A stretch of 64,000 bases of DNA from an uncultured Gammaproteobacteria bacterium (GTDB lineage: Bacteria; Patescibacteriota; Patescibacteriia; VMEV01; CAYQCH01): positions 125,942 through 189,941 of the forward strand of contig CAYGRO010000001.1 in assembly GCA_964352335.1 (NCBI GenBank). The letters are read 5' to 3'. The translations under genes and the position numbers were made by a program. Below the pieces are notes generated by a model, which was given only the letters and a program-made list of their open reading frames with translations, did not search any database and was not told where the DNA came from. Below, piece by piece: positions 1-60,684 of this stretch; within the stretch, counting starts at the first letter, position 1, and every line of letters starts with the position of its first letter.

Positions 1-466
1 CCCGGTGCCAGATGGCGTAAGATCCCTTCTTGGGGTCGCGCTCGGACGTGACCACGAGGTCATCATCCATGAACTTCCACGACGGGAAGAGCTCGGCGCC
101 CCTCTTGTAGAGCCTCTCGGCCGTCATGTCGCCGGCCATGACGAGCAGCCGCCCCAGACCGACGCGCGTCTCGGGGATGCGGAGGTCGGAGAAGCTCAGC
201 TCGAGTCCGTAGATCTCGAGGTAGAAAGACTCCCACCAGCGGAGCTGGTCGCGGACATCGTCCTCACAGACCGTCATCTTGCGGGCGTCCCGCGAAACGA
301 TGAGGTCGGCGATCCGCTCGAGGATGTCCTTCCCATCCGGCGTTGCCAGACGGTGGATGTCCTCGTCGGTTCCCCCCTTCATCCGCACAGTCTCGACGAG
401 GCTAGTGATGATGCCGGTGGCGAGCCCCATCCCACTAACGATTGACGACACGTTCTTCTTGGCCAT
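1..466 (-). CDS. hypothetical protein, 5' part only (ORF runs off the window start); high-GC cassette
   Basis: ATG at 466 on the minus strand gives an open frame (MAKKNVSSIVSGMGLATG...) with no stop before position 1. GC is about 60% against a 35% background. The listed + strand ORF 5..445 is its antisense shadow. Confidence 0.4.
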   Translation of the reverse strand, partial: MAKKNVSSIVSGMGLATGIITSLVETVRMKGGTDEDIHRLATPDGKDILERIADLIVSRDARKMTVCEDDVRDQLRWWESFYLEIYGLELSFSDLRIPETRVGLGRLLVMAGDMTAERLYKRGAELFPSWKFMDDDLVVTSERDPKKGSYAIWHR

Positions 467-970
467 TGGTATGGCTCTCCTTCTCTTTTGGCTCGTCCCT
501 CATCTCCACACACCATGCGCGGAGACCCCAGACGAGCCTCGTTCAATGACAGATTTTAACGCAAAATATGCGCTAAAATCTGCCATTGAGTGATTGTAAA
601 GAACAACGAAATAATATAACACGAATTGGACAAAAAAGCAAGCACAGGCCTATTTTTTTCTAATTAAAAAAAATGCATTTGGGCTCCGGGCATTCACCCC
701 TTTTCAGCCAGAGGCTGATCCGCCTTTGGAGGAAATTCCCCTCTGCCCTCCGCCCAAAAAGAAAAATTTTGTTTTGCTTCATTTGAAGAAAAGCTATTAA
801 ATGCAAAAAGGAATGATAAAAAATGTACGTCGTACAACAGCGCCTAAGCGACAAGCCTTTGCTCCGATGATCCGAATAGCCTATCATCTACGCAAAGGCG
901 CGTCGCCTAGGCGCGAACGTTGTCGGTCATTAATTTGTTTTTTCTCTAAATAAAGCTTTTAATTTGTAGT

Positions 971-3959: not shown

Positions 3960-4829
3960 CTATTTCTGACAACTCACACAAAAATGGGTTCCTCGCCCGG
4001 CTAATTTGGTTTTTTGAATATAATCATCTCCACATCGATCACATCTTTCCCCTTCTCGTCCATAGACTTTTAGATAATCAATATACCCGCCTTTTTTTCC
4101 AGAAGCATCAACAAAATTGGAAAATGTCGTACCACGTTTGGCAACCGCTTGTTCTAAAATAGTATTGCAAGCAGTAAAAAGTCTTTTCTTTTCTGGCCGG
4201 GTAAGCATATTAACCAATCGATCTGGTAGAATTTTAGCTCGATAACAAATTTCATCTGCATAAATATTTCCAATACCTGCAATAACTTGTTGATTGAGTA
4301 AAAGCGCTTTAAGAGAAGTTTTTCTGCGTTCAAATAGGTTTTCAAAAGCCTCCCAAGTAAAATCTAATGTTAATGGTTCAATGCCAAATTTGCTCAAAGC
4401 TGTGGCTGTTTGCACTTCATTGGCGAGATGAAGATATCCAAAGGTTCGTATATCATTAAAATAGAGAATAGATTCATCTGCAAAGTGAATGGCAATATGC
4501 GTATATTGATTTGGCAATTCATCAATCTTTGCCATCGGATGCCCACCGACAATAAGACCGCCAGGAATTTGGCAAATAAGTTGTCCAGTCATTTTTAAAT
4601 GAATCAGAAGTGTTTTATCACCATAGGCAAGCTCAAAAAATAAGAGTTTTCCTCTACGTCTTACTTGTTCAAATCTATTTCCTTCCAAGACGGAAATAAA
4701 TTCTTTTTCGTCATTTTTAAGACAACGCCCAGTTAGCGCTTCTACTTTACGAATGCCTTTTCCTAAAATGGCATATTGTAAATCTCTTCGAATGGTTTCT
4801 ACTTCTGGCAATTCAGGCATAATCGACAA
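3960..4829 (-). CDS. mutM: formamidopyrimidine-DNA glycosylase
   Basis: N-terminal PELPEVE catalytic motif and a C-terminal zinc finger CxxC...CxxC. Confidence 0.9.
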   Translation of the reverse strand: MSIMPELPEVETIRRDLQYAILGKGIRKVEALTGRCLKNDEKEFISVLEGNRFEQVRRRGKLLFFELAYGDKTLLIHLKMTGQLICQIPGGLIVGGHPMAKIDELPNQYTHIAIHFADESILYFNDIRTFGYLHLANEVQTATALSKFGIEPLTLDFTWEAFENLFERRKTSLKALLLNQQVIAGIGNIYADEICYRAKILPDRLVNMLTRPEKKRLFTACNTILEQAVAKRGTTFSNFVDASGKKGGYIDYLKVYGREGERCDRCGDDYIQKTKLAGRGTHFCVSCQK

Positions 4830-4877
4830 TTAACTTAGTTCGCCTATTTTACCTGTTTTTTTAATAAAATCAACTAC

Positions 4878-4906
4878 TTGCGAATCCCTTTTGTGATTGC
4901 TATTAT
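4878..4906 (+). promoter_or_regulatory. sigma70-like promoter, TTGCGA-17-TATTAT
   Basis: -35 at 4878-4883, 17-nt spacer, -10 at 4901-4906. No CDS lies downstream. Confidence 0.45.
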
Positions 4907-4913
4907 ATTTTTC

Positions 4914-5360
4914 AGGACTAAGTGACCCTGGACACTCCTGACATACTTAGCTTCTACCTAAGTTGATTCCAGTAACATAACATGGAGTATCGTGAAGCTG
5001 AACTTCCAAATTGGTAGCATGAAAAGCTACCACACCACGACGTTCGCAATCAGCACCCACTGAACCGCCAAGTCCCAAGGAAAGGAGGTGCCGTTGAAGA
5101 GCTCGATCTTTGACAGTTACTGACTCCCTCACTTGAAGCGCATACATGCGCTTCCACCGAAGCAGCCTAAAAAGGCTGGAAAGGAGGAAAATCATACCTT
5201 ACACTACAGAAGGCAGTTGCTCATCAACGAGTAGCACTATCTTCGGCTAGCGAAGGCCGCACAACCTAACGGCCGACCTGACAACAGCAGTACAAATCTC
5301 GCTGTATACTCGTCGGCCGTAACACAAAAGAGACATCTGATAAGATGTCTCTTTTGTTTG
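4914..5360 (+). ncRNA. unclassified structured non-coding RNA, about 440 nt
   Basis: Promoter upstream and a rho-independent terminator at the end. About 50% GC in a 35% GC genome. Several perfect hairpins, for example gaagcgcat-ac-atgcgcttc and ggtagc-atgaaaa-gctacc. No convincing ORF. Confidence 0.45.
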
Positions 5361-5366
5361 TTTTGA
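5327..5366 (+). terminator. rho-independent terminator
   Basis: aaaagagacatc / tgataa / gatgtctctttt, a 12-bp perfect stem, followed by gtttgttttg. Confidence 0.65.
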
Positions 5367-5374
5367 TGTTTTGT

Positions 5375-7372
5375 TTATTGGTTTTGAATAACAGGGTCTA
5401 AAATAATTGAACCATAATGCATGGTAACAAAAACTTTGTATTTCCCACTTGAATCTGGTTTAAAGTAAAAACCTAATCCAAGGCTATTCCAATCTTCGTG
5501 GTAAATTGTTCGATAATGATCACCATTTGTTGCAGCTTCAGAAAGAAAGAATGCTAAGGTATCATCTAATACTTTTTTTACAGATTCTGTTGAACCATCT
5601 GCGATCCCCCATGCAATATTTTCTGTAAAGTAATTATCATTCCACCCACCTTCACTATGACGAACTGTCCATTGTAAACCTTTTGTTTCAATCCATTGGT
5701 GCATGCTTTTTCCATCTGGGCGAGTATGCGTTGCAGAATTAATAGAACCCATATATCCAGCCCATTCAGAAGCAGTATTTACCCAACGTTGTTCTAATGT
5801 TAATTCACGTAAATCTTTTTCTGCTCGTAGGTTATTTATTTTTCCTGCCCAATATTCATTTAAAGCAATCAAATCTACTCCTTGTGGAATCGTACCTGCT
5901 TGATAAGGACTTTCTTGTACACCAGAAGTTACAAGCCCTTGTACATTTAATACAATTTCATTGCTATAAATATCACAAGCATCTCCAGTATAACGACAAA
6001 CTCTAAAATAATATTTACCTGCAGGCATATTTACTTTTCTAAACTCAAAAGCATTTGGGTCTGCGATATAGATAGAAGAATTTTCTGGATACGTTGGTAA
6101 TTGATCAATTGAATAAACAATTTTATATCCTAAAGAAGAATCTAAGCTTGTTTTTTGCCAACTCAACTTTACAACATCATTTTCTAATACGCCTGATAAT
6201 TGAATAGATCCACCAGGAAGAACCGAAGAACCATCGTTTTCAGAAATAAATATTTTTATATCATTACTATAAACACCACATGTTTTTCCTGTATATTGGC
6301 AAATACGGAAATGGTACTCTCGCCCATCACTTGCTACTTTAAATGCCATTTTTCTTATTTTTTCATCGTCTACAAAAATGGCAGTATCCTCAGAAAGTGT
6401 TGGATTCACTTTTGTACCATAAACTATTTTAAATCCTCGTGAAACATTTGTTTGGTTTACTGACCAGGAAAGATGAACAGTATTATCAATCAATTGACCA
6501 CTTAAACCAATGCTTCCAAAAACTTCTAATTCATCATCTTCTGGGATTTCATTTTTTACATCAGGAATTTCTTCTCCTCGTTTTTCGGCAAGAAAAACAT
6601 CAAAACTTTCAAAAGAAATTTCTTCTAAATCCTTATTAGAAATACCTAAACTAAGCTCTCGCATAATGCGATATGCTTCTGCCCCATCTTTTAGATAATG
6701 AACTGATAAATCTGTTGGATTAATATAATACGCTTCTCCATGAAGCTCTACAGCTAAAACAATTTTTCCTTTTACTTGTGTTGCTAATGTTTTATCTCCA
6801 GCTAGTAATCGATTAATATCTGCTGTAGAAGCACCTAAACCAAATTCACGCATCATTTGATAAGCAGTCGCTCCATCTTTCATATAAAAACGACGTCCAT
6901 CATCTGGATGCACATACCATGCTTCCCCATGATTTTCTACTTGGAGCAAAATATAACCACGAAGCTTTCTTGAAAGCTCAGTGTCTTTCACTTCATTTGA
7001 TGAAGTTGTTTCTTTGGCTTGCGTTGTTTCAATTTTCACAGCATCACCCTTTTCACCTGTAAATTGACGACCAGTAACCGTAATAAATGTATTCCAAACA
7101 TATCCTTTTCTTCCATCTTTCATTAATACAAGGTACCAACCATCTGCTTCTCCAATAATATCGACGGTAAGTCCTGCAGAAATACTTCCAACTGTGGAAC
7201 TATCCATACAAGTCATATCTCGCATATTAACGGTTGAGTTAACGGAACCAGTCCATTTAACGGTTGTAACAGGTTCTGTACAACTTCCTGCTTGTGCTTG
7301 AATAACCAAGCTTGCTGAGAGCAATAAAGTGCTCATCAAAGCGATACTCAGTCCTAAAATGCGCTTATTCAT
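5375..7372 (-). CDS. secreted multidomain protein: signal peptide, SH3b-like, two ~50-aa repeats, two FN3-like repeats, C-terminal CAP/SCP (YkwD-like) domain
   Basis: Signal peptide MNKRILGLSIALMSTLLLSASLVIQAQA. Internal repeated modules. C-terminal CAP motifs HTRPDG and ENIAWG. Confidence 0.6.
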   Translation of the reverse strand: MNKRILGLSIALMSTLLLSASLVIQAQAGSCTEPVTTVKWTGSVNSTVNMRDMTCMDSSTVGSISAGLTVDIIGEADGWYLVLMKDGRKGYVWNTFITVTGRQFTGEKGDAVKIETTQAKETTSSNEVKDTELSRKLRGYILLQVENHGEAWYVHPDDGRRFYMKDGATAYQMMREFGLGASTADINRLLAGDKTLATQVKGKIVLAVELHGEAYYINPTDLSVHYLKDGAEAYRIMRELSLGISNKDLEEISFESFDVFLAEKRGEEIPDVKNEIPEDDELEVFGSIGLSGQLIDNTVHLSWSVNQTNVSRGFKIVYGTKVNPTLSEDTAIFVDDEKIRKMAFKVASDGREYHFRICQYTGKTCGVYSNDIKIFISENDGSSVLPGGSIQLSGVLENDVVKLSWQKTSLDSSLGYKIVYSIDQLPTYPENSSIYIADPNAFEFRKVNMPAGKYYFRVCRYTGDACDIYSNEIVLNVQGLVTSGVQESPYQAGTIPQGVDLIALNEYWAGKINNLRAEKDLRELTLEQRWVNTASEWAGYMGSINSATHTRPDGKSMHQWIETKGLQWTVRHSEGGWNDNYFTENIAWGIADGSTESVKKVLDDTLAFFLSEAATNGDHYRTIYHEDWNSLGLGFYFKPDSSGKYKVFVTMHYGSIILDPVIQNQ

Positions 7373-7456
7373 AGAAAAAAAAGTTAATCAATGATTAATT
7401 ATTGTCGTTTGATTATAGGGAAAATAAACCACTTTGAAAAGCGAAAACTCCCTGAT

Positions 7457-7485
7457 TGACAAAATGTGATATTTTCTTTATATTT
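7457..7485 (+). promoter_or_regulatory. sigma70-like promoter, TTGACA-17-TATATT, upstream of the paired receiver genes
   Basis: Sequence match only. Confidence 0.4.
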
Positions 7486-7568
7486 ACTTGATTGTTTTTT
7501 CATCTTAGCGATAAATCTTTGTATTTATCTTTATGATGAAAATGACCACAGAAAGGGTCTAATAATTA

Positions 7569-7960
7569 TGTGCAAAATCCTTTGCGTCGATGACGACAAG
7601 GTAATGCTCCTCCTTATCGAGGAGTTCCTCGAGTGCAAATTTCCATCAGTAACGGTGGTTACCCATCAGTCCCCGCTCGAGGCAATCTCACAAGTCAAGA
7701 ATGACGAGAACATCAGTCTTGTCATCACTGACTGCGACATGGGCGAAGTGTCCGGCTTCGATGTCATCGAGGCCTGTATCGCGAAAGGCCTCCCCTCTGC
7801 CATCATGGTGAGTGGAGACGACACCAACCTAAAAACGGCGCTGTTCAAATTCAAAGACAAAATCCACTTCCAGACGCTCAACAAGCCAGCAAGCTTGCGA
7901 GAGCTGGAAGTGACCATCCGACACTCATTGGAACAACCAGAAAGGAAGTCTTGCTTATGA
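7569..7960 (+). CDS. single-domain response regulator (CheY-like receiver); high-GC cassette
   Basis: Acidic pocket CVDDD, phospho-acceptor Asp in ITDCDM, Ser in MVSGDD, conserved Lys-Pro (LNKPAS). GC is about 52%. Confidence 0.6.
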
Positions 7961-8352
7961 GCATCATCATCTACGTAGAAGACGAGGAAGAGTTCAGCGA
8001 CAGACTATTCCCACTCCTACAAAACCACTTCTCCGAGCATGAAGTCCTGCACTTCTACTGTGGAGGGCAAGCCATCTCTGCTCTTCGACAGAGAAGGGAT
8101 ACCGTCTCACTTCTCATCACCGATATCGCACTTGGTGTTAAGATCGACGGTCTTCAAGTGGCGCGTGCTGCGATGGAGCTTGGTATCAAACGGATCTTCA
8201 TCCTCTCAAGACAGGCCGAAGATCCGCTGAACAACCTCTACATCGACAGATTTGCCCAAAAGTTCGGGTCCACATTCAGGCTCAAGAACAAGCCAGAAGA
8301 CCTAGCAACAACCATCCCACTTATCAAGGAGCTGCTCAATGCAGATATCTAA
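7957..8352 (+). CDS. second single-domain response regulator (receiver)
   Basis: ATGA overlap with the upstream gene. Motifs YVEDEEE, LLITDIAL, ILSRQ and Lys-Pro (KNKPED). Confidence 0.6.
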   Translation: MSIIIYVEDEEEFSDRLFPLLQNHFSEHEVLHFYCGGQAISALRQRRDTVSLLITDIALGVKIDGLQVARAAMELGIKRIFILSRQAEDPLNNLYIDRFAQKFGSTFRLKNKPEDLATTIPLIKELLNADI

Positions 8353-8377
8353 GAGGTGGAGGTGGAACCACACAACC

Positions 8378-8432
8378 CCGCTCCCGCTCGCCGAGTCGCA
8401 AGACATGGCTAGAGCGGGCGGGGTTGTATTCA
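8378..8432 (+). terminator. GC-rich hairpin terminator
   Basis: caaccccgctcccgctc ... gagcgggcggggttg, followed by a T-rich tail. Confidence 0.5.
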
Positions 8433-8501
8433 TTTATTGACCAAGTAAAAGCTTCATGCTATTTATTAAACAAATGTCACGATAAAAGTATTAAATAAGC
8501 A

Positions 8502-9155
8502 TTGAATATTTTTATTGGCAAAGCAGTCCAAGGAGGACTGTTTTGTATTACCAAACAACAAAACAAGAAAGAGAGCATTTACGTGCTCGAGAATACTCCC
8601 GTGCCGTCTCGTGTCTCGGTCATCACCGACTATACGAGTGGAATGGCTATTGGCAACCGGTTCAAGATCTTGATGGGACATATCCTTTCTGGTGTTGACC
8701 CGAAAGTCTTTTCTCGGGCCGAAGAAGCTCGACAGTGGATCTCTACCAATCGACACCAACCCCCATTCCTCTACAACATCATGTGGCCCATACTAGACCA
8801 CTTCAACTCCCCTGAAGAACTGGGAGAAGAAATCCGTCGTGTCGGGTGGCTCGTCTGGGGCCTTGAACCCTTTGTCCTCAAGGGGATCAGTCACATCCTC
8901 ATCTACGGCATTCCTGGCCGAGCGGAGATCAAAGCTTCTTTGATGAAGATGCAATTCCCCAAAGACGAGGAAACCAAGCGCTTCAGCCTGCAGGTCGAAG
9001 CTGAGCTTGAGCAACATCGACCGTTGGGTGAACCACGTCAACCACCTGTCACCGACTACATCGAGATGGGGAAAAAGGGAGACGCCGTGGACCGTCTCTG
9101 CTTGCTCTGGGGCAACTGCCAAGACGTCGCCAACCGAACCCGAATCCGCTCTTGA
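8502..9155 (+). CDS. hypothetical protein partnered with the two receivers; start uncertain, GTG at 8583 is an alternative
   Basis: Long ORF in the same high-GC block. No family recognised. Confidence 0.4.
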   Translation: MNIFIGKAVQGGLFCITKQQNKKESIYVLENTPVPSRVSVITDYTSGMAIGNRFKILMGHILSGVDPKVFSRAEEARQWISTNRHQPPFLYNIMWPILDHFNSPEELGEEIRRVGWLVWGLEPFVLKGISHILIYGIPGRAEIKASLMKMQFPKDEETKRFSLQVEAELEQHRPLGEPRQPPVTDYIEMGKKGDAVDRLCLLWGNCQDVANRTRIRS

Positions 9156-9202
9156 CAACCCAGATATTCTGTCCTATGCTAGGTACAGGATAGGAGGAAT
9201 CC

Positions 9203-9310
9203 ATGAACGAAATCGAAAAGGCCTTCGCGGCCGCCCTCGACGCCAAGATCAACTCGATCTCGGCGAAGAAGACCGAGCCTTCCGAGGCTCACACCACGTC
9301 CGCGGCCTAG
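9203..9310 (+). CDS. small ORF, 35 aa (MNEIEKAFAAALDAKINSISAKKTEPSEAHTTSAA)
   Basis: Strong SD GGAGGA 6 nt upstream of ATG. Below the ORF-track length cutoff. Inside the high-GC block. Confidence 0.35.
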   Translation: MNEIEKAFAAALDAKINSISAKKTEPSEAHTTSAA

Positions 9311-9539
9311 CACCATGCTGGGCCACAACAATTCGTCGCAACCGCCTTGAGGTGGAACCAGTCATCGCTCTCCCGAGCAACCGACCAGTTCCACCTCTTC
9401 GCCTTTATAGGGACTTTTTCAAGTCTTTTTTTAATACAAAAAAACACCCATCTCTAGGTGCCAACCATCTTAGCAAAAGCCTACTCTCCTACTTTCCTAC
9501 TAGCTTTTAGCAAAGTAGCTAGTAAGAGGGTAGCGACAA

Positions 9540-10508
9540 TTAAACAGTCTCCGGAAACAACATATCAATAATCTTGCTCGCCACATCTCGAGACTTACCA
9601 ATGGTTGGTTCATGATGAATGGTTAAACCTGGATCAGATTCTAATTCAGTAATAAAGCCAGGTCGCCTTGAAATATCTGTAGAAAAAAAATCTACTCCAA
9701 TAATGTCAGCATCAAAATACTTCGCAATTTTTTTAGCCATTTGTTTTACTTCTTTGCAAAGTGAATCAGTTATATCAATAGAAATACCTCCACGATGAGA
9801 ATTTGAAAGCATTCCCAATGCAATTCTTTGGCCACGAGTTGGGATATCGGTTAATTTCATTCCTTGCTTTTTGAGTAATGCCTTACTTTCATCTGTCATT
9901 TTAATTTTTCTATTAGCAACTGGAACTATTTTATTCCATGAAAGGAGCAAATCATTAATAGAAGATTTTCCATCACCAAGAAGATGAGCTGGTACGCGCT
10001 TTACCGCAAAAACAAATTTTTTATTCACCACAAGAATACGATGATCTTCTCCTTTTAATTGTTTTTGAGCTAAAACTGTTTTTTTATATCTTCGACTACA
10101 ACTTAAAGATTTTTCTATTGCTTTTTTAAACTGAGATGGCTTTGTAATATTTACCGTAACACCTTTTCCACCATAGGAGTCCGTTGGTTTAATTACAATC
10201 TGTTTATGCTTATGTAAAAATGCTGTTAATTCTTTTTTTGAATCTGTTAAAAGACAAACGGGCGATGGCAAAGCTAGATCTTGTAAAATTTGAGCCGTTA
10301 AATATTTATCATTAAAAATATCACCGCTTACATACCCCGTTTTATTAGTACCAGCGCGCTTAATAAATTCACGATGTTTTTTGTATTCCAAAATTGCATA
10401 GCTTTCATATTTTTTCCCAAACCCTTTTACAGAAATACCTCGAGAACGAGCTTCATCTACAAGATATTGTGTATAGATACTGAATTTGTGTTCTACTGTT
10501 TTTTTCAT
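9540..10508 (-). CDS. RimK-like ATP-grasp ligase (CphA N-domain-like)
   Basis: Motifs IVIKPTDSYGGKGV and DIIGVDFF, and a C-terminal PTIGKSRDVASKIIDMLFP motif like other RimK-type grasp enzymes. Confidence 0.7.
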   Translation of the reverse strand: MKKTVEHKFSIYTQYLVDEARSRGISVKGFGKKYESYAILEYKKHREFIKRAGTNKTGYVSGDIFNDKYLTAQILQDLALPSPVCLLTDSKKELTAFLHKHKQIVIKPTDSYGGKGVTVNITKPSQFKKAIEKSLSCSRRYKKTVLAQKQLKGEDHRILVVNKKFVFAVKRVPAHLLGDGKSSINDLLLSWNKIVPVANRKIKMTDESKALLKKQGMKLTDIPTRGQRIALGMLSNSHRGGISIDITDSLCKEVKQMAKKIAKYFDADIIGVDFFSTDISRRPGFITELESDPGLTIHHEPTIGKSRDVASKIIDMLFPETV

Positions 10509-10550: not shown

Positions 10551-11408
10551 CTATACAGTTTCTAAGATTAAAGAACGTTTTTTAATTAAGTGATCAATAA
10601 TAGCACCAGCAATATCTTTTCCTGTTACCATAGAGCATCTCGGAAAAAAACACGGGAAATTTGTTTCTGCAACATACCCTTTTCCACGGTGGATAAGAAT
10701 ATCAACACCGCCAAAATCATAGTCCATTGCATCAACTGCTTTAACAGCTAATTGTTCAATGGCTTTTGAAAACTTTTTCTTTTGAACAAGTGGAGTTGCT
10801 CCAACATTTGAACGAAAATCTCCTTTAGGGGCTCTATATTCAATACTATCGATAACTTTTCCACCTAAAACGATTAAACGAGCAGAACGTCCCCCTGGAA
10901 TAAATTCTCGCATAATCACTCTTTCTGATTTTCCTTTGAAATAATCTGCCAATGAATTTAAAGCAGACAATGAATCTACTTTCATTACCCCTACTCCATG
11001 GCTTCCACCTGTCACCTTGATAATAAGTGGGAATCCCCCCAAGGCAACGGAAGCTTTTTTTAAATCCTCTGGTGTTCTTGGTAATGCATCAATTGTTTTT
11101 GGCTGACGAACTTGCTTTAATCGGTATCTATTAAATGAGTCATAGCTTATAAGTACTCTTTCTAAATTTTTGTGCAATGTAATTGGTTCTTGATGAGATA
11201 AAAAACTTTGAACAATAGCGCTTCGTTTACCAACACTAGATTTATACAATAAATCTCCCTTTTTTACTTTCAAAGGATTGGTAAATGAAAACTCATCAGG
11301 GTTGATTTCAATATAATCAATAGATCGCTCTGCACAAGCGGTGGCAAAGCGAATATTGATATCTGCATTTTTTTCTCGAGTGATATTTATGAATCGTATT
11401 TTTTTCAT
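10551..11408 (-). CDS. RimK family alpha-L-glutamate ligase-like ATP-grasp enzyme
   Basis: Motifs PLIIKVTGGSHGVGVMKV, GGVDIL and GKDIAGAIIDHL. Confidence 0.75.
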   Translation of the reverse strand: MKKIRFINITREKNADINIRFATACAERSIDYIEINPDEFSFTNPLKVKKGDLLYKSSVGKRSAIVQSFLSHQEPITLHKNLERVLISYDSFNRYRLKQVRQPKTIDALPRTPEDLKKASVALGGFPLIIKVTGGSHGVGVMKVDSLSALNSLADYFKGKSERVIMREFIPGGRSARLIVLGGKVIDSIEYRAPKGDFRSNVGATPLVQKKKFSKAIEQLAVKAVDAMDYDFGGVDILIHRGKGYVAETNFPCFFPRCSMVTGKDIAGAIIDHLIKKRSLILETV

Positions 11409-12346
11409 AGATATTTTTCAATATGATCGACAAATTTCACAAGAATTTTTTTCACTTCTTTTTCATGACCAGGTGTCATCTCTAAAGTTGGATTATGATT
11501 CATTTCAATAAGCTTTGGTGTTTTACGATTCAAAAACAACATATCTACTGAATACATTGTATTTTGAAAAGGCTTTAATCGTTTTGTTACTTCTTGTACA
11601 AGTTTTTTAGCTTGAGGAGGTAAATCAGAAAGAGCAATAAAAATTCGTGTACCACCCTGAGCAATATTACAAAGCTCTTTACCTTTAGCAGGAGTACGAA
11701 TATATGCTTGAATAGGTTTATGATCAAGACAAATAACTCGTAAATCATGAATCCCTTTAAATAAGCTAGGGATTCCTTGTTTACTATCTAAAAATGGTTG
11801 CATAATCGCTGGAAACTTTCCTTTGTACTGAGCAACTTTTTTTGAGGAAGAAATTTCTACTCCATTTCCACAAATACCACGAAGGTATTTCGTAACCCAT
11901 TTTCGTGTAGTTTTATGCTTTTTAGCAATTGCAGATAATTCTTCTTTATTATGCGCCAAATAAGATGGAATCGTTATTTCAGGAAACATTAAATGGGTCA
12001 TGAACTTATCTTCTGCAATCATTTGTACTCGTGGAGGATTTAAAGAGGGAGCCATTTCTTGCATCATATTTTTTATTGGCATCCGCTTATCTGAGCAGGC
12101 TGAACGATCTAAAATATAATCCGGCTTGAGATTTTTATTCTTTTCAACAAAGTTCTTACCGTCCCAAATATAATAAGAGGCAAATCCTTTTTCTGATAAT
12201 TCTTGAATATTGGTCCATACTACTTTTATTCCTCGCTCTTTTGCGATTTCATATAACCACAAATATGGCTGAATAATTTTCTCTGCCAAAATTCCATATT
12301 CCCTATTTTTCAGTTTATATCCGAAACAAATAGCAACTATTTTCAT
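11405..12346 (-). CDS. divergent ATP-grasp ligase
   Basis: 4-nt overlap with the downstream gene. ATP-grasp C-terminal motifs CNIAQGG, VDMLF and IEMNHNP. Confidence 0.55.
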   Translation of the reverse strand: MKIVAICFGYKLKNREYGILAEKIIQPYLWLYEIAKERGIKVVWTNIQELSEKGFASYYIWDGKNFVEKNKNLKPDYILDRSACSDKRMPIKNMMQEMAPSLNPPRVQMIAEDKFMTHLMFPEITIPSYLAHNKEELSAIAKKHKTTRKWVTKYLRGICGNGVEISSSKKVAQYKGKFPAIMQPFLDSKQGIPSLFKGIHDLRVICLDHKPIQAYIRTPAKGKELCNIAQGGTRIFIALSDLPPQAKKLVQEVTKRLKPFQNTMYSVDMLFLNRKTPKLIEMNHNPTLEMTPGHEKEVKKILVKFVDHIEKYL

Positions 12347-12513: not shown

Positions 12514-12963
12514 ATGACTATCACAATCATTGCCTCTCTCGAAGAAGGTAGTGAACAATGGGACGCAGTACAGCTTGGCTTACGCATTAAGGAGCAAACC
12601 TCGGTAGGTATGCTCTATAAGCGCTATAACGAGCTCAATACAGCAATCAACAAAATCGACACTGAGGAGCGTTGGTCAGACCTTCGTTTTCTCATCATCT
12701 CTCATGCTAGCGTTCTGCAGGCCATCGACCCAGAAGCGGGAACGATGTCAGCCGTGTCTGCTGAACTACAGCGAGTGAAAGACAAATTCGCTTTCAAGCG
12801 TTATGAACTCGTCATTATTGGAGTTTCCACCAATGACATGTTTGGCCAATCACTCATGCGTAGCGGGTGTGACACCACTTGCTCAGGAGAAGCCCTTCCA
12901 GAGCTTATCCTCGAACTCCTCCAGCCCCGCTCTGGACGGATCAAACTGCCCGACGACCTCTAA
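12514..12963 (+). CDS. hypothetical protein; high-GC cassette
   Basis: GC about 55%. Upstream TTGCAA-17-TATACT promoter and GAGGTAG RBS. Confidence 0.4.
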   Translation: MTITIIASLEEGSEQWDAVQLGLRIKEQTSVGMLYKRYNELNTAINKIDTEERWSDLRFLIISHASVLQAIDPEAGTMSAVSAELQRVKDKFAFKRYELVIIGVSTNDMFGQSLMRSGCDTTCSGEALPELILELLQPRSGRIKLPDDL

Positions 12964-19036: not shown

Positions 19037-19072
19037 AGATTCGTTTATAGATTATTTGTGCCTAAACAATAC

Positions 19073-19158
19073 CGCCCCCAGCCCCTCCTAGAAGGAGGGG
19101 TGCAGCTACACTCAGCATTACATTTTTCTCCCCTCCTTCTAGGAGGGGCTGGGGGCGG
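19073..19158. repeat. GC-rich palindromic REP-like element (copy R1)
   Basis: Outer IR ccgcccccag/ctgggggcgg encloses two hairpins, cccctcc-tagaa-ggagggg and cccctcc-ttcta-ggagggg. Confidence 0.6.
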
Positions 19159-19191
19159 TAAAGGACAAAACTTATATTATTTCGTGTCTGA

Positions 19192-21391: not shown

Positions 21392-21464
21392 GTGGATGTA
21401 GCTTAACAGGGAGAGCACGTCATCAAAAGTGACGAAGGTAGGGGTTCGAGACCCTTCATCCACA
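21392..21464 (+). tRNA. tRNA-like gene with non-canonical anticodon loop UCAAAAG (C33, anticodon AAA if read conventionally)
   Basis: Perfect 7-bp acceptor GTGGATG/CATCCAC. D-loop has A14, G18, G19, A21. Anticodon stem CGTCA/TGACG. T-arm AGGGG-TTCGAGA-CCCTT. Confidence 0.5.
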
Positions 21465-21546: not shown

Positions 21547-21689
21547 TAGAGACAGCCATTCGGATAGGTGGAAATCTTCTACCCCACGCCTATTGAGGTC
21601 GCCCCCTCACTGTCTCGCCTATTCTGACCCCTCGAATCGATGTTTACGCATTGGCTCGAGGGTTCTTCTTTTTGAAAAAAGTTAGAAAA

Positions 21690-21760
21690 CTAAAAAACTG
21701 AAAAGCTAAAAAACAGACAATTTTTTAGCTTTTCAGTTTTTTAGTTTTTTAGTTTTACTA
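21690..21760. terminator. AT-rich 26-bp perfect inverted repeat, bidirectional terminator between the tRNA operon and argS
   Basis: aactaaaaaactgaaaagctaaaaaa / cagacaa / ttttttagcttttcagttttttagtt. Confidence 0.5.
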
Positions 21761-23562: not shown

Positions 23563-23967
23563 CTAGAGCGAATCGCCCGGATCTCGGCTACGGCCAGAGA
23601 TGTCGATCTGGATGTACCGGATGACACTGAGCGGGATGCGAAAGCGACGACGAATGAGCACGGTACTTCCTACCTGCTCTGCAGGGAAGTCCTTGATCAT
23701 CGCACCGAAGCCACCTGGCGTGCACTCAGCTTCCTTGATCGAGTCGAGTGTCTCCCACTTCCCTCGACGGTTGGGGTTGATGGTCAAGACCAGAATGATC
23801 TGGCCCTGCGCCGTCCCTTCGTGGTCTGGCACGAGAGTGATGCTCTCGATATAGGGTGAACGAAAGAGTTCCCCTGTCACTAGACGACCGACCTCTTCTA
23901 AGGTCTTGCCATGCACGATGGCCAACTGCTTTTCATGCTTCACGATAACTTGGTCCGAACCCGACAT
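23563..23967 (-). CDS. hypothetical protein; high-GC cassette directly upstream of argS
   Basis: GC about 57%. GGGGAGGG upstream of ATG. Confidence 0.4.
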   Translation of the reverse strand: MSGSDQVIVKHEKQLAIVHGKTLEEVGRLVTGELFRSPYIESITLVPDHEGTAQGQIILVLTINPNRRGKWETLDSIKEAECTPGGFGAMIKDFPAEQVGSTVLIRRRFRIPLSVIRYIQIDISGRSRDPGDSL

Positions 23968-25805: not shown

Positions 25806-26168
25806 GTGCAGACACCAGCAAACCAGAAAAACGACGAGCTGCGGAAGAGGTTGTACATCGTCTACCTAAGCTGGATGATCAACATCCTCCTCAGGGAGAA
25901 TCACCCTGAGGACTCCATCACTCCAATCAAGCGCCAGATGGAGAAGGCCCTCAAGACCCGCGAGCTCGAGGAACAACTCAAGGAACTGGGCAGCGTCTTC
26001 GATGAGTGCTACGGCATTTTCAAGAAGACGTTCTACAACCTCAACCGGTATCAACCACCGGAGTTCGCCCGAGAGGTGGCCATGAACGACAACAATCTCG
26101 AGCGAGGAGGCCTCGTCCTCCAGATCGAGCGAGCGAAAGAGCTGGATCTCTTCACTCGACTCAACTAA
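25806..26168 (+). CDS. hypothetical protein; high-GC cassette with a long structured 5' leader
   Basis: GC about 55%. No family recognised. Confidence 0.35.
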   Translation: MQTPANQKNDELRKRLYIVYLSWMINILLRENHPEDSITPIKRQMEKALKTRELEEQLKELGSVFDECYGIFKKTFYNLNRYQPPEFAREVAMNDNNLERGGLVLQIERAKELDLFTRLN

Positions 26169-26217: not shown

Positions 26218-26925
26218 TCATGGTGCTAGCGGTGGGTTTTTGTTTTGTTTTTTTAAATTTTGCAAATCTTCATTCCATTTGTTTACATTGTTAATGATAT
26301 ATCTCCTCGCATTAAATAAATGGGTTTCATTTCGAATAATTGTTTCATGATAATTTCGTTGCCATATTATTCCATCAAATCCAGACAACCGAGCCTCACG
26401 CGTAACCGCAGATTTATATGACCGAATAATGGCCGATAATGAACCAGGTTTAATCACGCCATATGCCGGCACACACCCCACCCGGGAATGATTCGTACGC
26501 CAACGGCGACGGAGGGGCGCAGCATGCTGCGCCCCTCCGTCGCCGTTGGCGTCATCGGGTTTGGCGCGTGGGGTGTGTGCCGGCTGGTGATCAACATGAT
26601 TCTTGATATGAATCATCGCATGCACATGGTCGGGCATGATAATAAATTCATCAACAACAACATTTGGAAAATGGTTCGGTATTTCTTGTAAAAACCTTTC
26701 TGCAATTTCACCATATTTTGATAAATTCATTTTGCCGTTTTTTATGTGACCAAATAACCTTAATCGATCTTTGGTACAAATCGTGACAAAATAATATCCG
26801 ATCGAACAATAATCATGCATTCGTAACCGAATTGATCTTCTCCCACCATCTCGCATAAAAAATACCCCACAGCAATAGCATTGATGTGAGGTGCTTATAT
26901 TATACCATACCCATTGACACCCCAC
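26218..26925 (-). CDS. REP-associated tyrosine transposase (RAYT) / IS200-like Y1 HuH transposase
   Basis: Motifs YCSIGYYFVTICTKDR, HuH MPDHVHAMIH and catalytic Tyr region IWQRNYHETIIRNE...YIINN. The true start is probably internal (MRDGG... or MHDYC...). Confidence 0.7.
   Translation of the reverse strand: MGCQWVWYNISTSHQCYCCGVFFMRDGGRRSIRLRMHDYCSIGYYFVTICTKDRLRLFGHIKNGKMNLSKYGEIAERFLQEIPNHFPNVVVDEFIIMPDHVHAMIHIKNHVDHQPAHTPRAKPDDANGDGGAQHAAPLRRRWRTNHSRVGCVPAYGVIKPGSLSAIIRSYKSAVTREARLSGFDGIIWQRNYHETIIRNETHLFNARRYIINNVNKWNEDLQNLKKQNKNPPLAP
26464..26588. repeat. GC-rich perfect palindrome embedded in-frame in the RAYT gene
   Basis: Outer gccggcacacaccccac / gtggggtgtgtgccggc. Inner 52-bp perfect palindrome gccaacggcgacggaggggcgcagcatgctgcgcccctccgtcgccgttggc. 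It carries the same CCCCTCC/GGAGGGG arms as the intergenic REP-like family. Confidence 0.6.
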
Positions 26926-28990: not shown

Positions 28991-29140
28991 GGAACCCTCC
29001 CTCGCTTATGCCTTTTAGGCATGGCGCATTTCCCTCCCTTTTCAAGAGAGGGAGAGCTGCATCATAAAAACAAATTTCCCTCTCTTGAAAAGGGAGGGAA
29101 ATGTTTAGTCCGCAAGGCTGGCTGAACGAGGGAGGGTTCC
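28991..29140. repeat. GC-rich palindromic REP-like element (copy R2, about 150 bp)
   Basis: Outer IR ggaaccctccctcg / cgagggagggttcc. Inner mirrored hairpins ccctcccttttcaagagagggag and ccctctcttgaaaagggaggg. Confidence 0.55.
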
Positions 29141-30625: not shown

Positions 30626-30955
30626 TTGAATATTTTCTTCTACCCCAATTACATCAACTGCCAAGCGACGAGAAGTCTTTCGCCTTGGCTCTACAAACAG
30701 CTAGACGCGAGAGAAATCCCACTAGAGGAAATCTTCTGGGCGGGTGAACTCGATGCCATACTGCGAATCGAAAAGCCATCAATTATCCGAGCATCCTCTG
30801 TTATGAGGTGCCAAGAAAAAGACCTCGCCGAGGTTTGCCACCAAAAAGGACATTTTCTCTTCTACGACGACCACCACATCCTGCCATCGGGCAGAGTCTC
30901 GGGAAAAGAAGCTGAGCTCGCACTTCGCGAATGGCTCGACAGAAACGCCAATTAG
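30626..30955 (+). CDS. hypothetical protein; high-GC cassette, TTG start
   Basis: AAGGAG 6 nt upstream of TTG. GC about 52%. Confidence 0.4.
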   Translation: MNIFFYPNYINCQATRSLSPWLYKQLDAREIPLEEIFWAGELDAILRIEKPSIIRASSVMRCQEKDLAEVCHQKGHFLFYDDHHILPSGRVSGKEAELALREWLDRNAN

Positions 30956-30998: not shown

Positions 30999-31065
30999 TG
31001 GAGTAATTGACAGCAAAACCAAAAAAAGGTTTAATCACCTTTCATGGATCTAGTATGGAGGTACT

Positions 31066-31364
31066 CTGTGAATAATACCGAGACGGTTTCGATCAAACTA
31101 TTCTTGTCCAAAGATGTCTTGGGAGAACCAATTTACACGGCCGAGGTCCACTGCCCTTCAAGGGAGGTCACACAAGGAACGGGAAATTGCGTCACGATAC
31201 AATTCCTCACCCATGTGATACGAGGCTTTCTCATTTCTTTTGGGAGAAAGTCTGGTGAAACCCCGGATGAGATTGTGGTGGAGCATGGTTCAAAAAGAAA
31301 AAACAAGCAAGTTACCGAAACCGAGCTTCAGACGGTAAAGCAAGCACTAAAGGAGTTCATCTAA
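31066..31364 (+). CDS. hypothetical protein; high-GC cassette, GTG start after GGAGG
   Basis: GC-rich ORF. The track lists it as 31044..31364. Confidence 0.4.
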
Positions 31365-32626: not shown

Positions 32627-32834
32627 ATATTTTGAATCTAATTTTTCTCATAGTAACACAATAGCCCCAACTAGTTCCATGGATATCAAAAAAAAGACAG
32701 TAAAATTAGTGTACTTTCATGGCTGAGCCACGTGAACGGGAGCGTTCAATGTTGGTCCTGTCGCGTATAACCAGCAAGCTGGCACGCGACTCCCGCCTAC
32801 GAAAAAACAGCAGTACGAGCTGCTGTTTTTACGT

Positions 32835-32895
32835 GGCGGGCCGGACGAGAATCGAACTCGCGATCTTCTCCGTGACAGGGAGACGTGATAACCGT
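32835..32895 (-). pseudogene. 61-nt 3' fragment of tRNA-Asp (D-loop through CCA); direct repeat of 37627..37687
   Basis: Identical to the 3' portion of the intact tRNA-Asp 4.8 kb away. Homology stops at the tRNA D-loop. Confidence 0.65.
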
Positions 32896-37626: not shown

Positions 37627-37702
37627 TGGCGGGCCGGACGAGAATCGAACTCGCGATCTTCTCCGTGACAGGGAGACGTGATAACCGCTACACTACCGGC
37701 CC
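37627..37702 (-). tRNA. tRNA-Asp (anticodon GTC), CCA encoded
   Basis: GGGCCGG acceptor, anticodon loop CTGTCAC, T-arm GCGAG-TTCGATT-CTCGT, 3' CCGGCCC-G-CCA. Confidence 0.85.
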
Positions 37703-37909
37703 AAATATTAAATTGTCTTTCCACAAGATTTATCGTTCCAAAGTTCCTCAAGGAGCGAAGGAAGATAAACAAAACCCGCCCGTTAAGGAGGGTATGGAGA
37801 ATATAGCAAATGGAGGGATATTTGTCTAGAAGAGCTGAAATCATTGACTTATGCTAGAAATGATGCTAATTTTTACTGTCAACAAAAACACAAGGACAGT
37901 ACAGACCTA

Positions 37910-38620
37910 ATGAACAATAAGAACCGTATCGCCCTGGTGGTGGCCTTTCTTCTCGTTATTGGAACTAGCTGGTTGCTGGTCTCAAAAAAGGAAAGGCAGC
38001 CGAAGCCTATTCCCCCAGCCCCGTCGGTAAGTATCGCCCCGCTTAATACGCGGGCAACCCATACGCTCCTTCCGGGGGCGGCCGTGCCAACCATGGAGCA
38101 AGTCTACTTTGTGAGCAACCTCATGCTCCCAATGTTCGACAAGACGGCACTGACTTACCCAGAACCGAGCATTCGCGAACGCTTTGCTCGCTTCCTGCAA
38201 AGAACCAGAGACGGAGGGGATGTTCATTTCAATATGGACACCGGAATCCAATCCCAAGTGATGGCTGCGGTCAGTCTTCATGAAGGGAGGATCACCTTAA
38301 CCATTTGGGTTTGTGTGCCAATGCAATGGTACAAAGAATCAGGTGAGGATCTAGAAGCTCTCGAAGACGAAATGGTGATGAGCATGCTCCATGAGCAATA
38401 TCATGTAGAGCACCATGTTTTGCAAAACGCACCTCATCGCCTCGCCGAGTCGGAAGCTTGGTGGTATACCATTGAAACGGTCTGCCTCCCCATGCGAAAA
38501 ACTGGCCGTCTCAAAAAAATCAAGCCATTCTTGGCAAGAGCACTCGAGGCTTATCGTCAGGCCAATGGTGACCCAAAGTCTGCCAGTTGGCAGAACTTCC
38601 TCGACGAGCTAGGAAACTAA
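37910..38620 (+). CDS. membrane-anchored hypothetical protein; high-GC cassette abutting tRNA-Asp
   Basis: N-terminal TM helix (IALVVAFLLVIGTSWLLV). GC about 55%. Upstream TTGACT-17-TAATTT. Confidence 0.4.
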   Translation: MNNKNRIALVVAFLLVIGTSWLLVSKKERQPKPIPPAPSVSIAPLNTRATHTLLPGAAVPTMEQVYFVSNLMLPMFDKTALTYPEPSIRERFARFLQRTRDGGDVHFNMDTGIQSQVMAAVSLHEGRITLTIWVCVPMQWYKESGEDLEALEDEMVMSMLHEQYHVEHHVLQNAPHRLAESEAWWYTIETVCLPMRKTGRLKKIKPFLARALEAYRQANGDPKSASWQNFLDELGN

Positions 38621-42882: not shown

Positions 42883-43089
42883 TTACAAAACCTCGAACGC
42901 GAGGTCCACGATGATCATGACGGCGATGAACGCCAACGTGATCAACGTCATCAGGAGCGGAAGCCCCCACTTGGAGTGCACGAAGCGCTCCCACCGGGTC
43001 TCATCACACTGGATGACCCCCTTCTGAGCACGACGGAACTCCGACATTGACGTCATACGCGGCAAAGTGCGCGGGTTCATTTGAACCAC
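42883..43089 (-). CDS. small membrane protein (68 aa, C-terminal TM helix); high-GC cassette
   Basis: Consensus promoter TTGACA-17-TATAGT at 43097..43125 on the minus strand plus an AAAGGTGG RBS. Terminator at 42776..42792. Confidence 0.45.
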   Translation of the reverse strand: MVQMNPRTLPRMTSMSEFRRAQKGVIQCDETRWERFVHSKWGLPLLMTLITLAFIAVMIIVDLAFEVL

Positions 43090-60227: not shown

Positions 60228-60292
60228 AACTTAAAATCTGAAAAGCTAAAAAACTGAAAACGCCCCACTATTTATTTTTCATCTGATAAATT

Positions 60293-60652: not shown

Positions 60653-60684
60653 CAATTTTTTTAGCTTTTTAGTTTTTCAGATTT

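Follow-up and report, generated by a model that had tools for sequence, protein, structure and literature searches.

The 64-kb stretch of DNA analyzed here (contig CAYGRO010000001.1, positions 125,942 to 189,941 of the forward strand, referred to as the window and numbered from its first nucleotide) contains a cassette of four small genes. These encode two stand-alone receivers (RR1 and RR2), a protein of an unannotated family (ORF3) and a micro-protein of 35 amino acids (aa). We consider the cassette to be, with reasonable though far from complete assurance, a resident and clade-restricted signalling module of receiver-fold proteins and a micro-protein, occupying a slot between a CAP/SH3 gene and convergent ATP-grasp genes that is shared with related genomes. 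A first-pass annotation of this DNA had described an orphan signalling module of atypical composition, a description that holds for the stand-alone receivers, the absence of a kinase nearby and the GC content at third codon positions (GC3). The same annotation had further interpreted the module as foreign coding DNA placed behind a native promoter, and this interpretation is contradicted by the synteny of the locus, by conserved internal promoters and by host-like amino-acid usage. The contigs that encode the ORF3 relatives were recovered by exact-sequence look-up, and all related loci are referred to below by number (L002, L003 and so on).

Receiver proteins RR1 and RR2

RR1 (7568..7960, + strand) encodes a stand-alone receiver (REC) domain of 130 aa with the full DD/D/S/K set of active-site residues. 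It scores 44.7 bits with the Pfam Response_reg profile (PF00072; cut-off 30.2, E 1.7e-11), aligning to positions 1-110 of the 111 in the profile, and also matches solved receiver domains. RR2 (7957..8352, + strand; 131 aa) is more divergent, and its ATG overlaps the TGA stop codon of RR1 in the sequence ATGA. No Pfam match was found for RR2 at E<=0.01, which leaves it below the PF00072 threshold, and its NCBIfam matches to VanR N-terminal models are weak (5.6e-4). RR2 can nevertheless be classed as a receiver on transitive evidence: it shares 27% identity with RR1 over 116 residues and 34% identity (E 2e-10) with a 144-aa L003 protein that is itself a Pfam-positive receiver (3.4e-11). Moreover, when RR1, RR2 and the two corresponding L007 proteins are combined in a four-sequence profile, 93 solved receiver domains are matched, including those of CheY and Spo0F.

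A functional receiver is defined by five active-site residues, namely an acidic pair, the phospho-acceptor Asp, a Ser/Thr and a Lys (PMC12632262). All five are present in both proteins in our alignment (A5), as VDDD, ITD, VSG and NKP in RR1 and as VEDE, ITD, ILS and NKP in RR2, where the E-D, D, S and K-P positions are kept. The earlier claim of two receivers with an ATGA overlap and intact Asp and Lys-Pro was thus borne out, through Pfam for RR1 and transitively for RR2. The profile check that had been proposed for the products of the cassette returned PF00072 for RR1, and no Pfam match for RR2, ORF3 or the micro-protein.

Both proteins consist of the receiver domain only, with neither a DNA-binding nor an enzymatic output domain. 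A word-indexed search of 5.8 billion proteins returned no relative of RR1 or RR2 besides themselves, and both are singleton clusters in that collection. An exact-sequence look-up of RR1 from the ATG at 7568 gave no match, and the collection has RR1 only in a longer form of 164 aa (P0008). Against the PADLOC models of anti-phage defence systems, two non-significant matches were obtained for RR1 (E 0.0014 and 0.0098) and none for the other seven proteins submitted. The first-pass annotation had stated that the window lacks a histidine kinase, and this stands for the 48 window ORFs scanned with Pfam, among which no HisKA or HATPase_c domain was found. Gene calls in the L002, L006 and L007 contexts likewise yielded no kinase domain. 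Of a classical two-component system, neither the linked kinase nor the output domain was found at the locus.

RR1 and RR2 resemble CheY, Spo0F and DivK (PF00072) in their length of about 130 aa, in being made of the receiver only and in carrying the DD/D/S-T/K set. They are unlike these proteins in that the 64-kb window provides neither a kinase nor a context of CheA, methyl-accepting chemotaxis protein, histidine phosphotransfer (Hpt) or sporulation genes, as well as in being singletons, with RR2 falling under the Pfam threshold.

ORF3, a predicted receiver-fold protein

ORF3 (8583..9155, + strand) is read from a GTG start codon and encodes 190 aa. The longest mechanical reading of this frame begins at the TTG at 8502 (8502-9155, 217 aa) and a length of 200 aa had been given previously; we place the start at the GTG at 8583 because all close relatives begin with MLE/D-x-TP, a start seen in four homologues. 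The other half of the previous description, a protein of unannotated family, is upheld. ORF3 has no match in Pfam, NCBIfam or PADLOC, none of the five family members (0/5) matches Pfam at E<=10, and searches of GTDB species representatives, of JGI metagenomes and of viral contigs returned no member of the family. Only three relatives were found in the collection of 5.8 billion proteins (65, 54 and 44% identity), to which an exhaustive profile search of 1.84 billion representatives added one more, P0005 (159 aa, E 1.5e-11). A fifth hit of the latter search, P0006, is a low-complexity repeat sequence and was rejected as a false positive.

The AlphaFold2 model of the window ORF3 has a mean predicted local distance difference test score (pLDDT) of 82 and follows the element order beta1-alpha1-beta2-alpha2-beta3-alpha3-beta4-alpha4-[extra helix]-beta5-alpha5, which corresponds to a predicted (beta-alpha)5 receiver-like fold with an inserted helix. 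The model of P0005 (pLDDT 88) has the receiver element order (beta1-alpha1...beta5-alpha5), and receiver domains make up nearly the whole of its best 50 PDB matches in Foldseek (E from 2.4e-4, probability 1.0, TM up to 0.71), among them XynC, RR468, Spo0F, KdpE, PhoP and CheY. The two best entries, 6swl and 3kcn, rank third and first, respectively, in the sequence-profile search made with the neighboring receivers. This agreement would fit an origin of ORF3 as an old tandem paralogue of those receivers. Sequence comparison did not recover such a relationship, as hhalign of ORF3 against the neighboring receivers gave a probability of 0.7% and PDB sequence searches with ORF3 returned no receiver match.

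The phospho-acceptor of receivers is located at the C-terminal end of beta3 (D57-W-N-M-P in E. coli CheY). P0005 has Asp62-Trp-Pro there, and Met-Trp-Pro is found in the window ORF3 (Met67) and its three close relatives, the Trp-Pro being invariant. A loop specific to the family, RPLGE-x-R-x-x-P (RPLGEPRQPP in the window), is invariant and precedes beta5 in the alpha4-beta5 region. Judging from the models, ORF3 is best described as a very divergent receiver-fold protein without the phospho-acceptor aspartate, i.e., a pseudo-receiver.

Published pseudo-receivers, or aspartate-less receivers (PMC4395418; PMC12632262), are comparable to ORF3 in its predicted (beta-alpha)5 fold and in the occurrence of a residue other than Asp (Met67) at the phospho-acceptor site; the first receiver of L007 likewise has a non-Asp residue (Arg) at this position. 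They differ in being computationally recognizable, whereas the ORF3 family is invisible to Pfam, profile-profile and PDB sequence searches. The inserted helix, the RPLGEPRQPP loop and the constant pairing with a micro-protein further set ORF3 apart, and the family would add a new, profile-invisible branch to the aspartate-less receivers.

The micro-protein

The last gene of the cassette encodes a micro-protein of 35 aa, MNEIEKAFAAALDAKINSISAKKTEPSEAHTTSAA (9203..9310, + strand), and is preceded by GGAGG 7 nt upstream of its start codon. The first-pass annotation had pointed out this ORF and its strong Shine-Dalgarno sequence, and the ORF is confirmed by its conservation in four other loci; it was also called in an independent Logan assembly. 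A block of 34 nt that covers the ribosome-binding site and the start region is identical in the window and L008. The micro-protein comprises an N-terminal amphipathic helix-like segment, a [TVD]-E-P-[ST] motif and a tail of Ser, Thr and Ala. The helix-like segment and the motif are common to the peptides across loci, and the C-terminus -TTSAA is common to the window peptide and the 43-aa ORF of L002. No match to the micro-protein was found in Pfam, NCBIfam or PADLOC.

Promoters, hairpins and transcription units

The cassette is predicted to form three transcription units with host-type sigma-70-like promoters, which from their sequence would be organized as P1-RR1-RR2-T1, P2-leader hairpin-ORF3 and P3-micro-protein-T3. 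P1 (7456..7484, + strand; TTGACA-17-TATATT) matches 11 of the 12 consensus positions and lies in a divergent intergenic region of 195 bp and 25.6% GC that is shared with the CAP/SH3 gene. This promoter had been noted earlier and is present as described, except that its coordinate of 7457 was off by one. Downstream of P1, the 5' leader of RR1 contains an AT-rich inverted repeat (7497..7542, + strand; 20-nt arms, 85% complementary) that may represent an operator or a leader hairpin. The RR1-RR2 unit ends in T1 (8372..8440, + strand), which by folding is a compound GC-rich hairpin followed by a U-rich tail. The stability of the hairpin proper (8372-8427, -46.1 kcal/mol, z -5.9) bears out the terminator proposed earlier after the receivers, and an equivalent is present in L008.

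P2 (8437..8465, + strand; TTGACC-17-TATTTA with a TGn extended -10), the putative promoter of ORF3, was identified by sequence reading and conservation; it is kept in L008 and L009, and its equivalent in L002 is TTGACA-17-TATGGT. Between P2 and the start of ORF3 lies a leader hairpin, CAGTCC-N(3-5)-GGACTG followed by TTTT (8518..8546, + strand), that is invariant in four loci amid leaders that are otherwise divergent. The L002 hairpin has no gene upstream of it on the same strand, and the hairpin is therefore a leader element and not merely the terminator of an upstream gene. Its candidate roles are those of an attenuator or, in view of its perfect palindromic form, an operator. A leader peptide starting at the TTG at 8543, just past the hairpin, was considered and rejected, since it is not conserved in L008, L009 and L002.

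P3, the putative micro-protein promoter (9152..9180, + strand; TTGACA-17-TATGCT), has the stop codon of ORF3 (TGA, 9153-9155) within its -35 hexamer, and this arrangement was observed in all five loci (window, L002, L007, L008 and L009). The micro-protein gene is followed by T3 (9349..9410, + strand), a terminator whose hairpin, GAGGTGGAAC...GTTCCACCTC, encloses a nested one and leads into a U-rich tail (z -3.4). Equivalents of the T3 hairpin (9349-9397) with altered stems are found 3' of the peptide in L002 and L007. The 5' arms of T1 and T3 share GAGGTGGAACC (8359-8369 and 9349-9359; 4 matches, 0.45 expected), and the common arms suggest either a shared origin of the terminators or a recognition motif.

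Perfect TTGACA-17 promoters also occur ahead of native genes of the window, for example smpB and a tRNA pair. Since the internal promoters of the cassette are conserved and AT-rich and promoters of the same form serve native genes, the AT-rich nature of P1 is no evidence of a graft. A search of Rfam over 4800-9600 found no family even at E<=1. The hairpins located 3' of RR2 and of the peptide were also examined as integron attC-like sites, a reading that was rejected as they contain no GTTRRRY core and the GC-rich islets of the window are dispersed. We also observed that the peptide terminator of L002 (about 10811) opens with TAAGAGGTGGA, as does the RR2 terminator of the window.

Conservation of the cassette in related loci

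From fpg through argS, the gene order of L002 (27 kb) follows that of the window. The housekeeping proteins of the two are 71-75% identical, compared with 46-54% for CAP, 33-39% for ATP-grasp and 44% for ORF3. In L002 an ORF3 homologue and the 43-aa ORF occupy the slot, which is bounded by the CAP/SH3 gene on one side and a pair of ATP-grasp genes on the other (- strand for all three). The 43-aa ORF is followed at 10945-11542 by two predicted membrane ORFs (140 and 72 aa; GC3 0.61-0.64) that have no counterpart in the window.

The complete four-gene architecture was found in the same slot in L006/L007, two overlapping contigs from a more distant organism. The gene order is CAP/SH3 (- strand), a 122-aa receiver, a 145-aa receiver, P0005, a 45-aa ORF and ATP-grasp (- strand), and the 145-aa receiver matches Pfam at 2e-8 and has five of five active-site residues. 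Shorter portions of the arrangement are visible in two further loci. L008, with an ORF3 65% identical to that of the window and 69% DNA identity to the window cassette overall, has the C-terminus of an RR2 homologue upstream of ORF3 and the start of the peptide (MNEIE...) downstream. In L009 (ORF3 54% identical), ORF3 is preceded by the end of the upstream terminator and followed by the first part of a small ORF (...ITDEPT) on the peptide pattern. L003, which belongs to a metagenome-assembled genome (MAG) of 50% GC, has a receiver gene and a 153-aa gene beside its CAP gene and lacks ORF3, the peptide and ATP-grasp. L004 was considered as a further syntenic relative and dismissed, as it is not syntenic at this locus.

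ORF3 is only 65, 54, 44 and 25% identical across these syntenic loci and the arrangement is therefore old. The cassette is also limited to a narrow clade: no cassette genes were seen at nine other CAP-gene loci taken from JGI metagenomes, and the receiver profile has no match in viral contigs. The best-named relative of the flanking CAP gene comes from a MAG of Candidatus Magasanikbacteria (Patescibacteria/Parcubacteria group), and the host is probably a Magasanikbacteria-like member of the Patescibacteria, also known as the candidate phyla radiation (CPR).

ORF3, the peptide and ATP-grasp are jointly present in the window, L002 and L007 and jointly missing from L003; receivers, for their part, occur in the window, L007, L008 and L003 but not in L002. 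This phyletic pattern hints at two sub-modules, which at four informative loci are inseparable from plain synteny.

Base and codon composition

The cassette lies in a GC-rich islet of 2.0 kb (7535-9539) with 50.0% GC, compared with 38% for the whole window and about 35% for the background. In windows of 300 nt, GC ranges from 0.47 to 0.57 over 7501-9450 and from 0.30 to 0.39 in the flanks, which bears out the rise in GC reported earlier. Within the islet GC dips to 0.41-0.44 at 8251-8700, the site of the internal AT-rich promoter region, where 8431-8582 has 29.6% GC.

The GC excess is almost purely synonymous, with NNT codons giving way to NNC and NNA codons to NNG. GC at the first, second and third codon positions (GC1/GC2/GC3) is 0.47-0.59/0.32-0.47/0.60-0.89 in the cassette genes and 0.48/0.35/0.24 in the background genes (n=24, GC3 standard deviation (SD) 0.03), so that GC3 of the cassette lies more than 12 SD from the background and GC1 and GC2 remain near it. 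RR1 has a GC3 of 0.66 and the micro-protein one of 0.89. Third-position C alone amounts to 0.42 in the cassette and 0.11 in the host. From host to cassette, the share of ATC among Ile codons rises from 0.19 to 0.93, that of TTC from 0.17 to 0.82, that of GAC from 0.25 to 0.79 and that of AAG from 0.15 to 0.60, and the share of TTA among Leu codons drops from 0.45 to 0.02. Amino-acid usage is host-like, as seen for Ile (8.7% in the cassette, 8.0% in the host), Lys (6.2 and 7.7%), Asn (3.7 and 4.3%) and Phe (4.6 and 4.6%). The comparison of codon usage with the flanks that had been suggested as a check of foreign origin thus finds GC3 atypical, but only the synonymous sites differ and GC1 and GC2 are host-like.

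The same contrast recurs in the relatives. GC3 in L002 is 0.68 for ORF3 and 0.91 for the peptide (background 0.30-0.37), and in L006/L007 it is 0.66-0.83 for the cassette (background 0.40-0.44); the contrast is absent from L003, whose genome has 50% GC. The CAP and ATP-grasp genes have host-type GC3 in spite of a divergence like that of ORF3 (46-54% and 33-39% identity, compared with 44%). No cassette homologue is present in L005, where a different orphan, also GC3-rich, adjoins the CAP gene.

At least eight other small ORFs of the window are GC3-rich (0.52-0.86), each in a GC-rich islet of its own. ORFs with this third-position signature are located at 2-499 (-), 12514-12963 (+), 23563-23967 (-), 25806-26168 (+), 30626-30955 (+), 31044-31364 (+), 37844-38620 (+), 42883-43089 (-) and 57224-57934 (-). 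No significant Pfam match was found for any of the seven GC3-rich orphans scanned (0/7), and these orphans look like a genome-wide class of compositionally distinct genes. Because the anomaly recurs both in the relatives and in other orphans of the window, it marks a flexible, lineage-specific class of genes and not a one-off insertion. GC3-rich coding is accordingly a long-standing trait of this flexible gene set and not the scar of a recent foreign graft.

The excess of synonymous GC persists across hosts with GC3 of 0.24, 0.35 and 0.42, which simple amelioration theory does not predict. Candidate causes are codon-level selection or GC-biased gene conversion acting in place and, alternatively, repeated allelic replacement from GC-richer relatives by way of the conserved flanks. 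The excess could serve as a test case in uncultured symbionts, for gene flow as well as for biased gene conversion and codon-level selection.

Origin of the cassette

The features commonly associated with a genomic island are only partly found here: the composition is atypical, the cassette is present at the corresponding locus of relatives and mobility signatures such as an integrase or transposase, flanking direct repeats or a tRNA target are missing. The borders have neither flanking direct repeats nor mobility genes, the neighbors being the CAP/SH3 and ATP-grasp genes. We regard a recent horizontal acquisition from an unrelated high-GC donor behind a native promoter, as the first-pass annotation had it, as very unlikely. 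The abrupt step of 15-20 points in GC at both ends and the orphan status of the genes would fit such an event. Set against them are the presence of the same module in the same slot in relatives at 25-65% identity and the internal promoters, which are likewise AT-rich and conserved with the module. The host-like amino-acid composition, the borders free of repeats and mobility genes, and the lack of donor-like or viral homologues among GTDB representatives, JGI metagenomes and viral contigs are further points against it.

A mis-assembly at the GC boundaries had also been named as an outcome that would overturn the earlier interpretation. That GC-richer reads were joined into an AT-rich contig is extremely improbable, since a contig of the independent Logan assembly agrees without a mismatch (100% identity) over 7604-9888 and thereby reproduces the right boundary, crossing it into the ATP-grasp gene, and since both junctions recur in L002 and in L006/L007. 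What could be said for a chimera is the sharpness of the compositional step and the fact that the related contigs L001, L008 and L009 end in or near the cassette.

A further explanation, which is possible but on balance unlikely, is recurrent replacement within the clade, in which alleles of the slot, taken as a flexible locus between the CAP gene and the ATP-grasp/DOT1-like genes, were repeatedly swapped by homologous recombination with GC-richer Patescibacteria, so that synteny was preserved and GC3-rich DNA was imported in the process. This explanation concerns the origin of the composition and is compatible with the functional reading given below; in a variant of it, GC-biased gene conversion acts at a recombination hot spot. 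The slot content differs among relatives (L002, L003 and L005), and the small GC3-rich orphans, at least eight besides the cassette genes, are scattered through the window; both observations agree with replacement. A survey has found most detected Patescibacteria gene transfers to occur between Patescibacteria (PMC12455944), a predominance that also favors it. By contrast, replacement is opposed by the lack of any near-identical, donor-like copy (the best ORF3 relative being 65% identical), by the singleton status of both receivers among 5.8 billion proteins and by the host-like amino-acid composition. It is also opposed by the divergence of ORF3, which is in step with that of the fast-evolving CAP and ATP-grasp genes, and these are not GC3-rich.

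The interpretation that we prefer, a resident and clade-restricted module of receiver-fold proteins with a micro-protein, has several observations weighing against it. GC1, GC2 and GC3 of the cassette (about 0.52-0.59, 0.32-0.40 and 0.60-0.66) resemble those of L003 genes, such as CAP with 0.53/0.37/0.58, as replacement would have it, and vertical residence alone leaves unexplained why the synonymous sites were kept from the AT bias of the host. L002 is without both receivers, so ORF3 and the peptide can exist alone, and the 122-aa receiver of L006/L007 matches Pfam at 2e-4 and has Arg at the Asp position. The loci are five in all, with three of them on short contigs. The receiver ancestry of ORF3 comes from predicted structures only, the profile-profile, Pfam and PDB sequence searches being empty, and the PDB matches of the window ORF3 model in Foldseek are weak and mixed (G-alpha Ras-like and receiver domains, E around 4e-3). 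In addition, no kinase, Hpt protein or output was identified, and the signalling logic is drawn from domain content only.

Proposed function and the ATP-grasp neighbors

From this domain content, the likely function of the cassette is phosphorylation-dependent protein-protein signalling. An unlinked kinase or a small phospho-donor would phosphorylate RR1, RR2 or both. RR1 and RR2 have no output domain and would therefore signal by binding to partners in a phosphorylation-dependent manner, the likeliest partners being the Asp-less ORF3 and the micro-protein, in what would amount to a partner-switch circuit. ORF3 might make contact through its invariant RPLGEPRQPP loop, as receivers signal through the alpha4-beta5 region in which this loop lies. 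The conserved leader hairpin could additionally gate ORF3 expression. The neighboring ATP-grasp ligases may be the output. The PhyR-NepR-sigmaEcfG and Rap-Phr-Spo0F systems likewise combine a phosphorylatable receiver with a very small helical partner and no DNA-binding output. The likeness is one of working principle only: the cassette is without a sigma-like domain, an anti-sigma factor, a Rap protein and a secretion signal, and no homology to these systems was detected.

Patescibacteria have tiny genomes with sparse and poorly understood regulation, and a module of receiver-fold proteins and a micro-protein would offer a compact signalling test system in this group.

Three ATP-grasp genes follow the cassette on the opposite strand and were assigned with Pfam and NCBIfam. 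AG1 (9540-10508, - strand) is like the G domain of cyanophycin synthetase (E 1e-66), AG2 (10551-11408, - strand) belongs to the RimK family and AG3 (11405-12346, - strand) is RimK/TTL-like. All three are convergent with the cassette and have host composition. Genes of the AG3 type flank the cassette in L002 and L007, and AG1 and AG2 are specific to the window. On the evidence of four loci, the ATP-grasp genes are possible functional partners of ORF3 and the peptide.

This neighborhood also admits a different function, peptide modification or tagging, which we think has a small chance of being correct. The micro-protein would then be a substrate of the ATP-grasp enzymes, through C-terminal addition of the RimK/TTL/cyanophycin-synthetase type or through graspetide cyclization, with ORF3 as a recognition or chaperone partner of the peptide and the receivers as regulators. 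ORF3 and the peptide lie beside a convergent ATP-grasp gene in all three loci with a visible right flank (window, L002 and L007; 3/3), and ORF3, the peptide and ATP-grasp are jointly missing from L003, but a co-occurrence over four related loci is inseparable from plain synteny, and AG1 and AG2 are confined to the window. The peptide tail contains conserved Thr/Ser and Glu residues and ends in -TTSAA in the window and L002, as a substrate of such enzymes might.

Graspetide clusters have been reported in CPR bacteria (PMC8939145) and provide a precedent for tagging. Like these clusters and the RimK, cyanophycin-synthetase and TTL ligases, the cassette has ATP-grasp genes directly beside a conserved small peptide. 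It is unlike them in that MNEIEKAFAAALDAKINSISAKKTEPSEAHTTSAA and its homologues have neither the Phhx(1,2)h leader motif nor the TxxxTx(6-10)Dx(1-4)D core of the CPR precursors (PMC8939145), and the NCBIfam matches of the ATP-grasp proteins are to RimK, glutathione-synthetase and cyanophycin-synthetase models, with no graspetide-maturase model among them. Moreover, the peptide and ATP-grasp genes are convergent, belong to separate transcription units and follow opposite codon regimes. A reading of the peptide and ATP-grasp genes as a system for a peptide made on ribosomes and then modified post-translationally (RiPP) is weak, and C-terminal ligation to the peptide is speculative.

Signalling and tagging can be joined in a broader proposal, which we put forward as a long shot. 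The clade would keep a dispersed set of small, fast-evolving and lineage-specific genes in a regime of C- and G-ending codons across speciation, their amino-acid content staying host-like, with the cassette as the best-conserved member of the set, and a kinase-less circuit of three receiver-fold proteins would control, via the Asp-less ORF3, a micro-protein of 35-45 aa that is a substrate or primer of the ATP-grasp ligases nearby. If this were true, the codon regime would either have a function, for example by letting the tRNA pool or mRNA structure gate expression, or be the mark of a private recombining gene pool.

Other features of the window

Beyond the ATP-grasp genes, a GC3-rich (0.53) orphan of 149 aa (12514..12963, + strand) has no Pfam match and is weakly similar to the 153-aa gene of L003 (38% identity over 40 aa, E 2e-6 in pairwise comparison). 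The two genes occupy equivalent positions just before a DOT1-like gene, and the L003 copy follows the receiver gene. This orphan may be a further degenerate receiver-like component, its membership of the module being uncertain. A similar gene was suspected past the ATP-grasp gene of L007 and was not supported.

On the other side of the cassette, between fpg and the CAP/SH3 gene, a stretch of 480 bp (4893-5375) with about 46% GC has no convincing ORF and no Rfam match at E<=1; the corresponding intergenic space in L002 measures about 100 bp. This stretch may be a structured RNA or a gene remnant.

Two observations concern tRNA genes. The 3' part of tRNA-Asp (37627-37687 within the tRNA at 37627-37702, - strand) recurs in an exact copy of 61 nt at 32834-32894, 4.8 kb away. 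The two copies bracket an AT-rich segment (about 30-33% GC) with genes for a class-II aminoacyl-tRNA synthetase-like protein, an LD-carboxypeptidase, a 373-aa ORF, a methyltransferase and an HD-domain protein, and the duplication looks like an att duplication of an element integrated in tRNA-Asp. At 21392-21464, ARAGORN predicts a tRNA-Phe with the anticodon AAA in place of the usual GAA; it lies 9 nt upstream of tRNA-Ile(GAT) and scores 54 bits with the Rfam tRNA model.

Perfect GC-rich palindromes were found at 19070-19160 (31-nt arms, 29-nt spacer), 26497-26552 (28-nt arms, no spacer) and 29027-29103 (27-nt arms, 23-nt spacer). The second of these lies inside an ORF (26218-26925) with no Pfam match at E<=1e-4, whose PDHVH motif is presumably of the kind seen in HUH/Y1 transposases. 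Finally, an AT-rich repeat with a period of 8 nt (AAAACTGAAAAGCTAAAAAAC-like) occurs with inverted copies at three intergenic sites, namely 21674-21756, 60214-60260 and 60638-60702.

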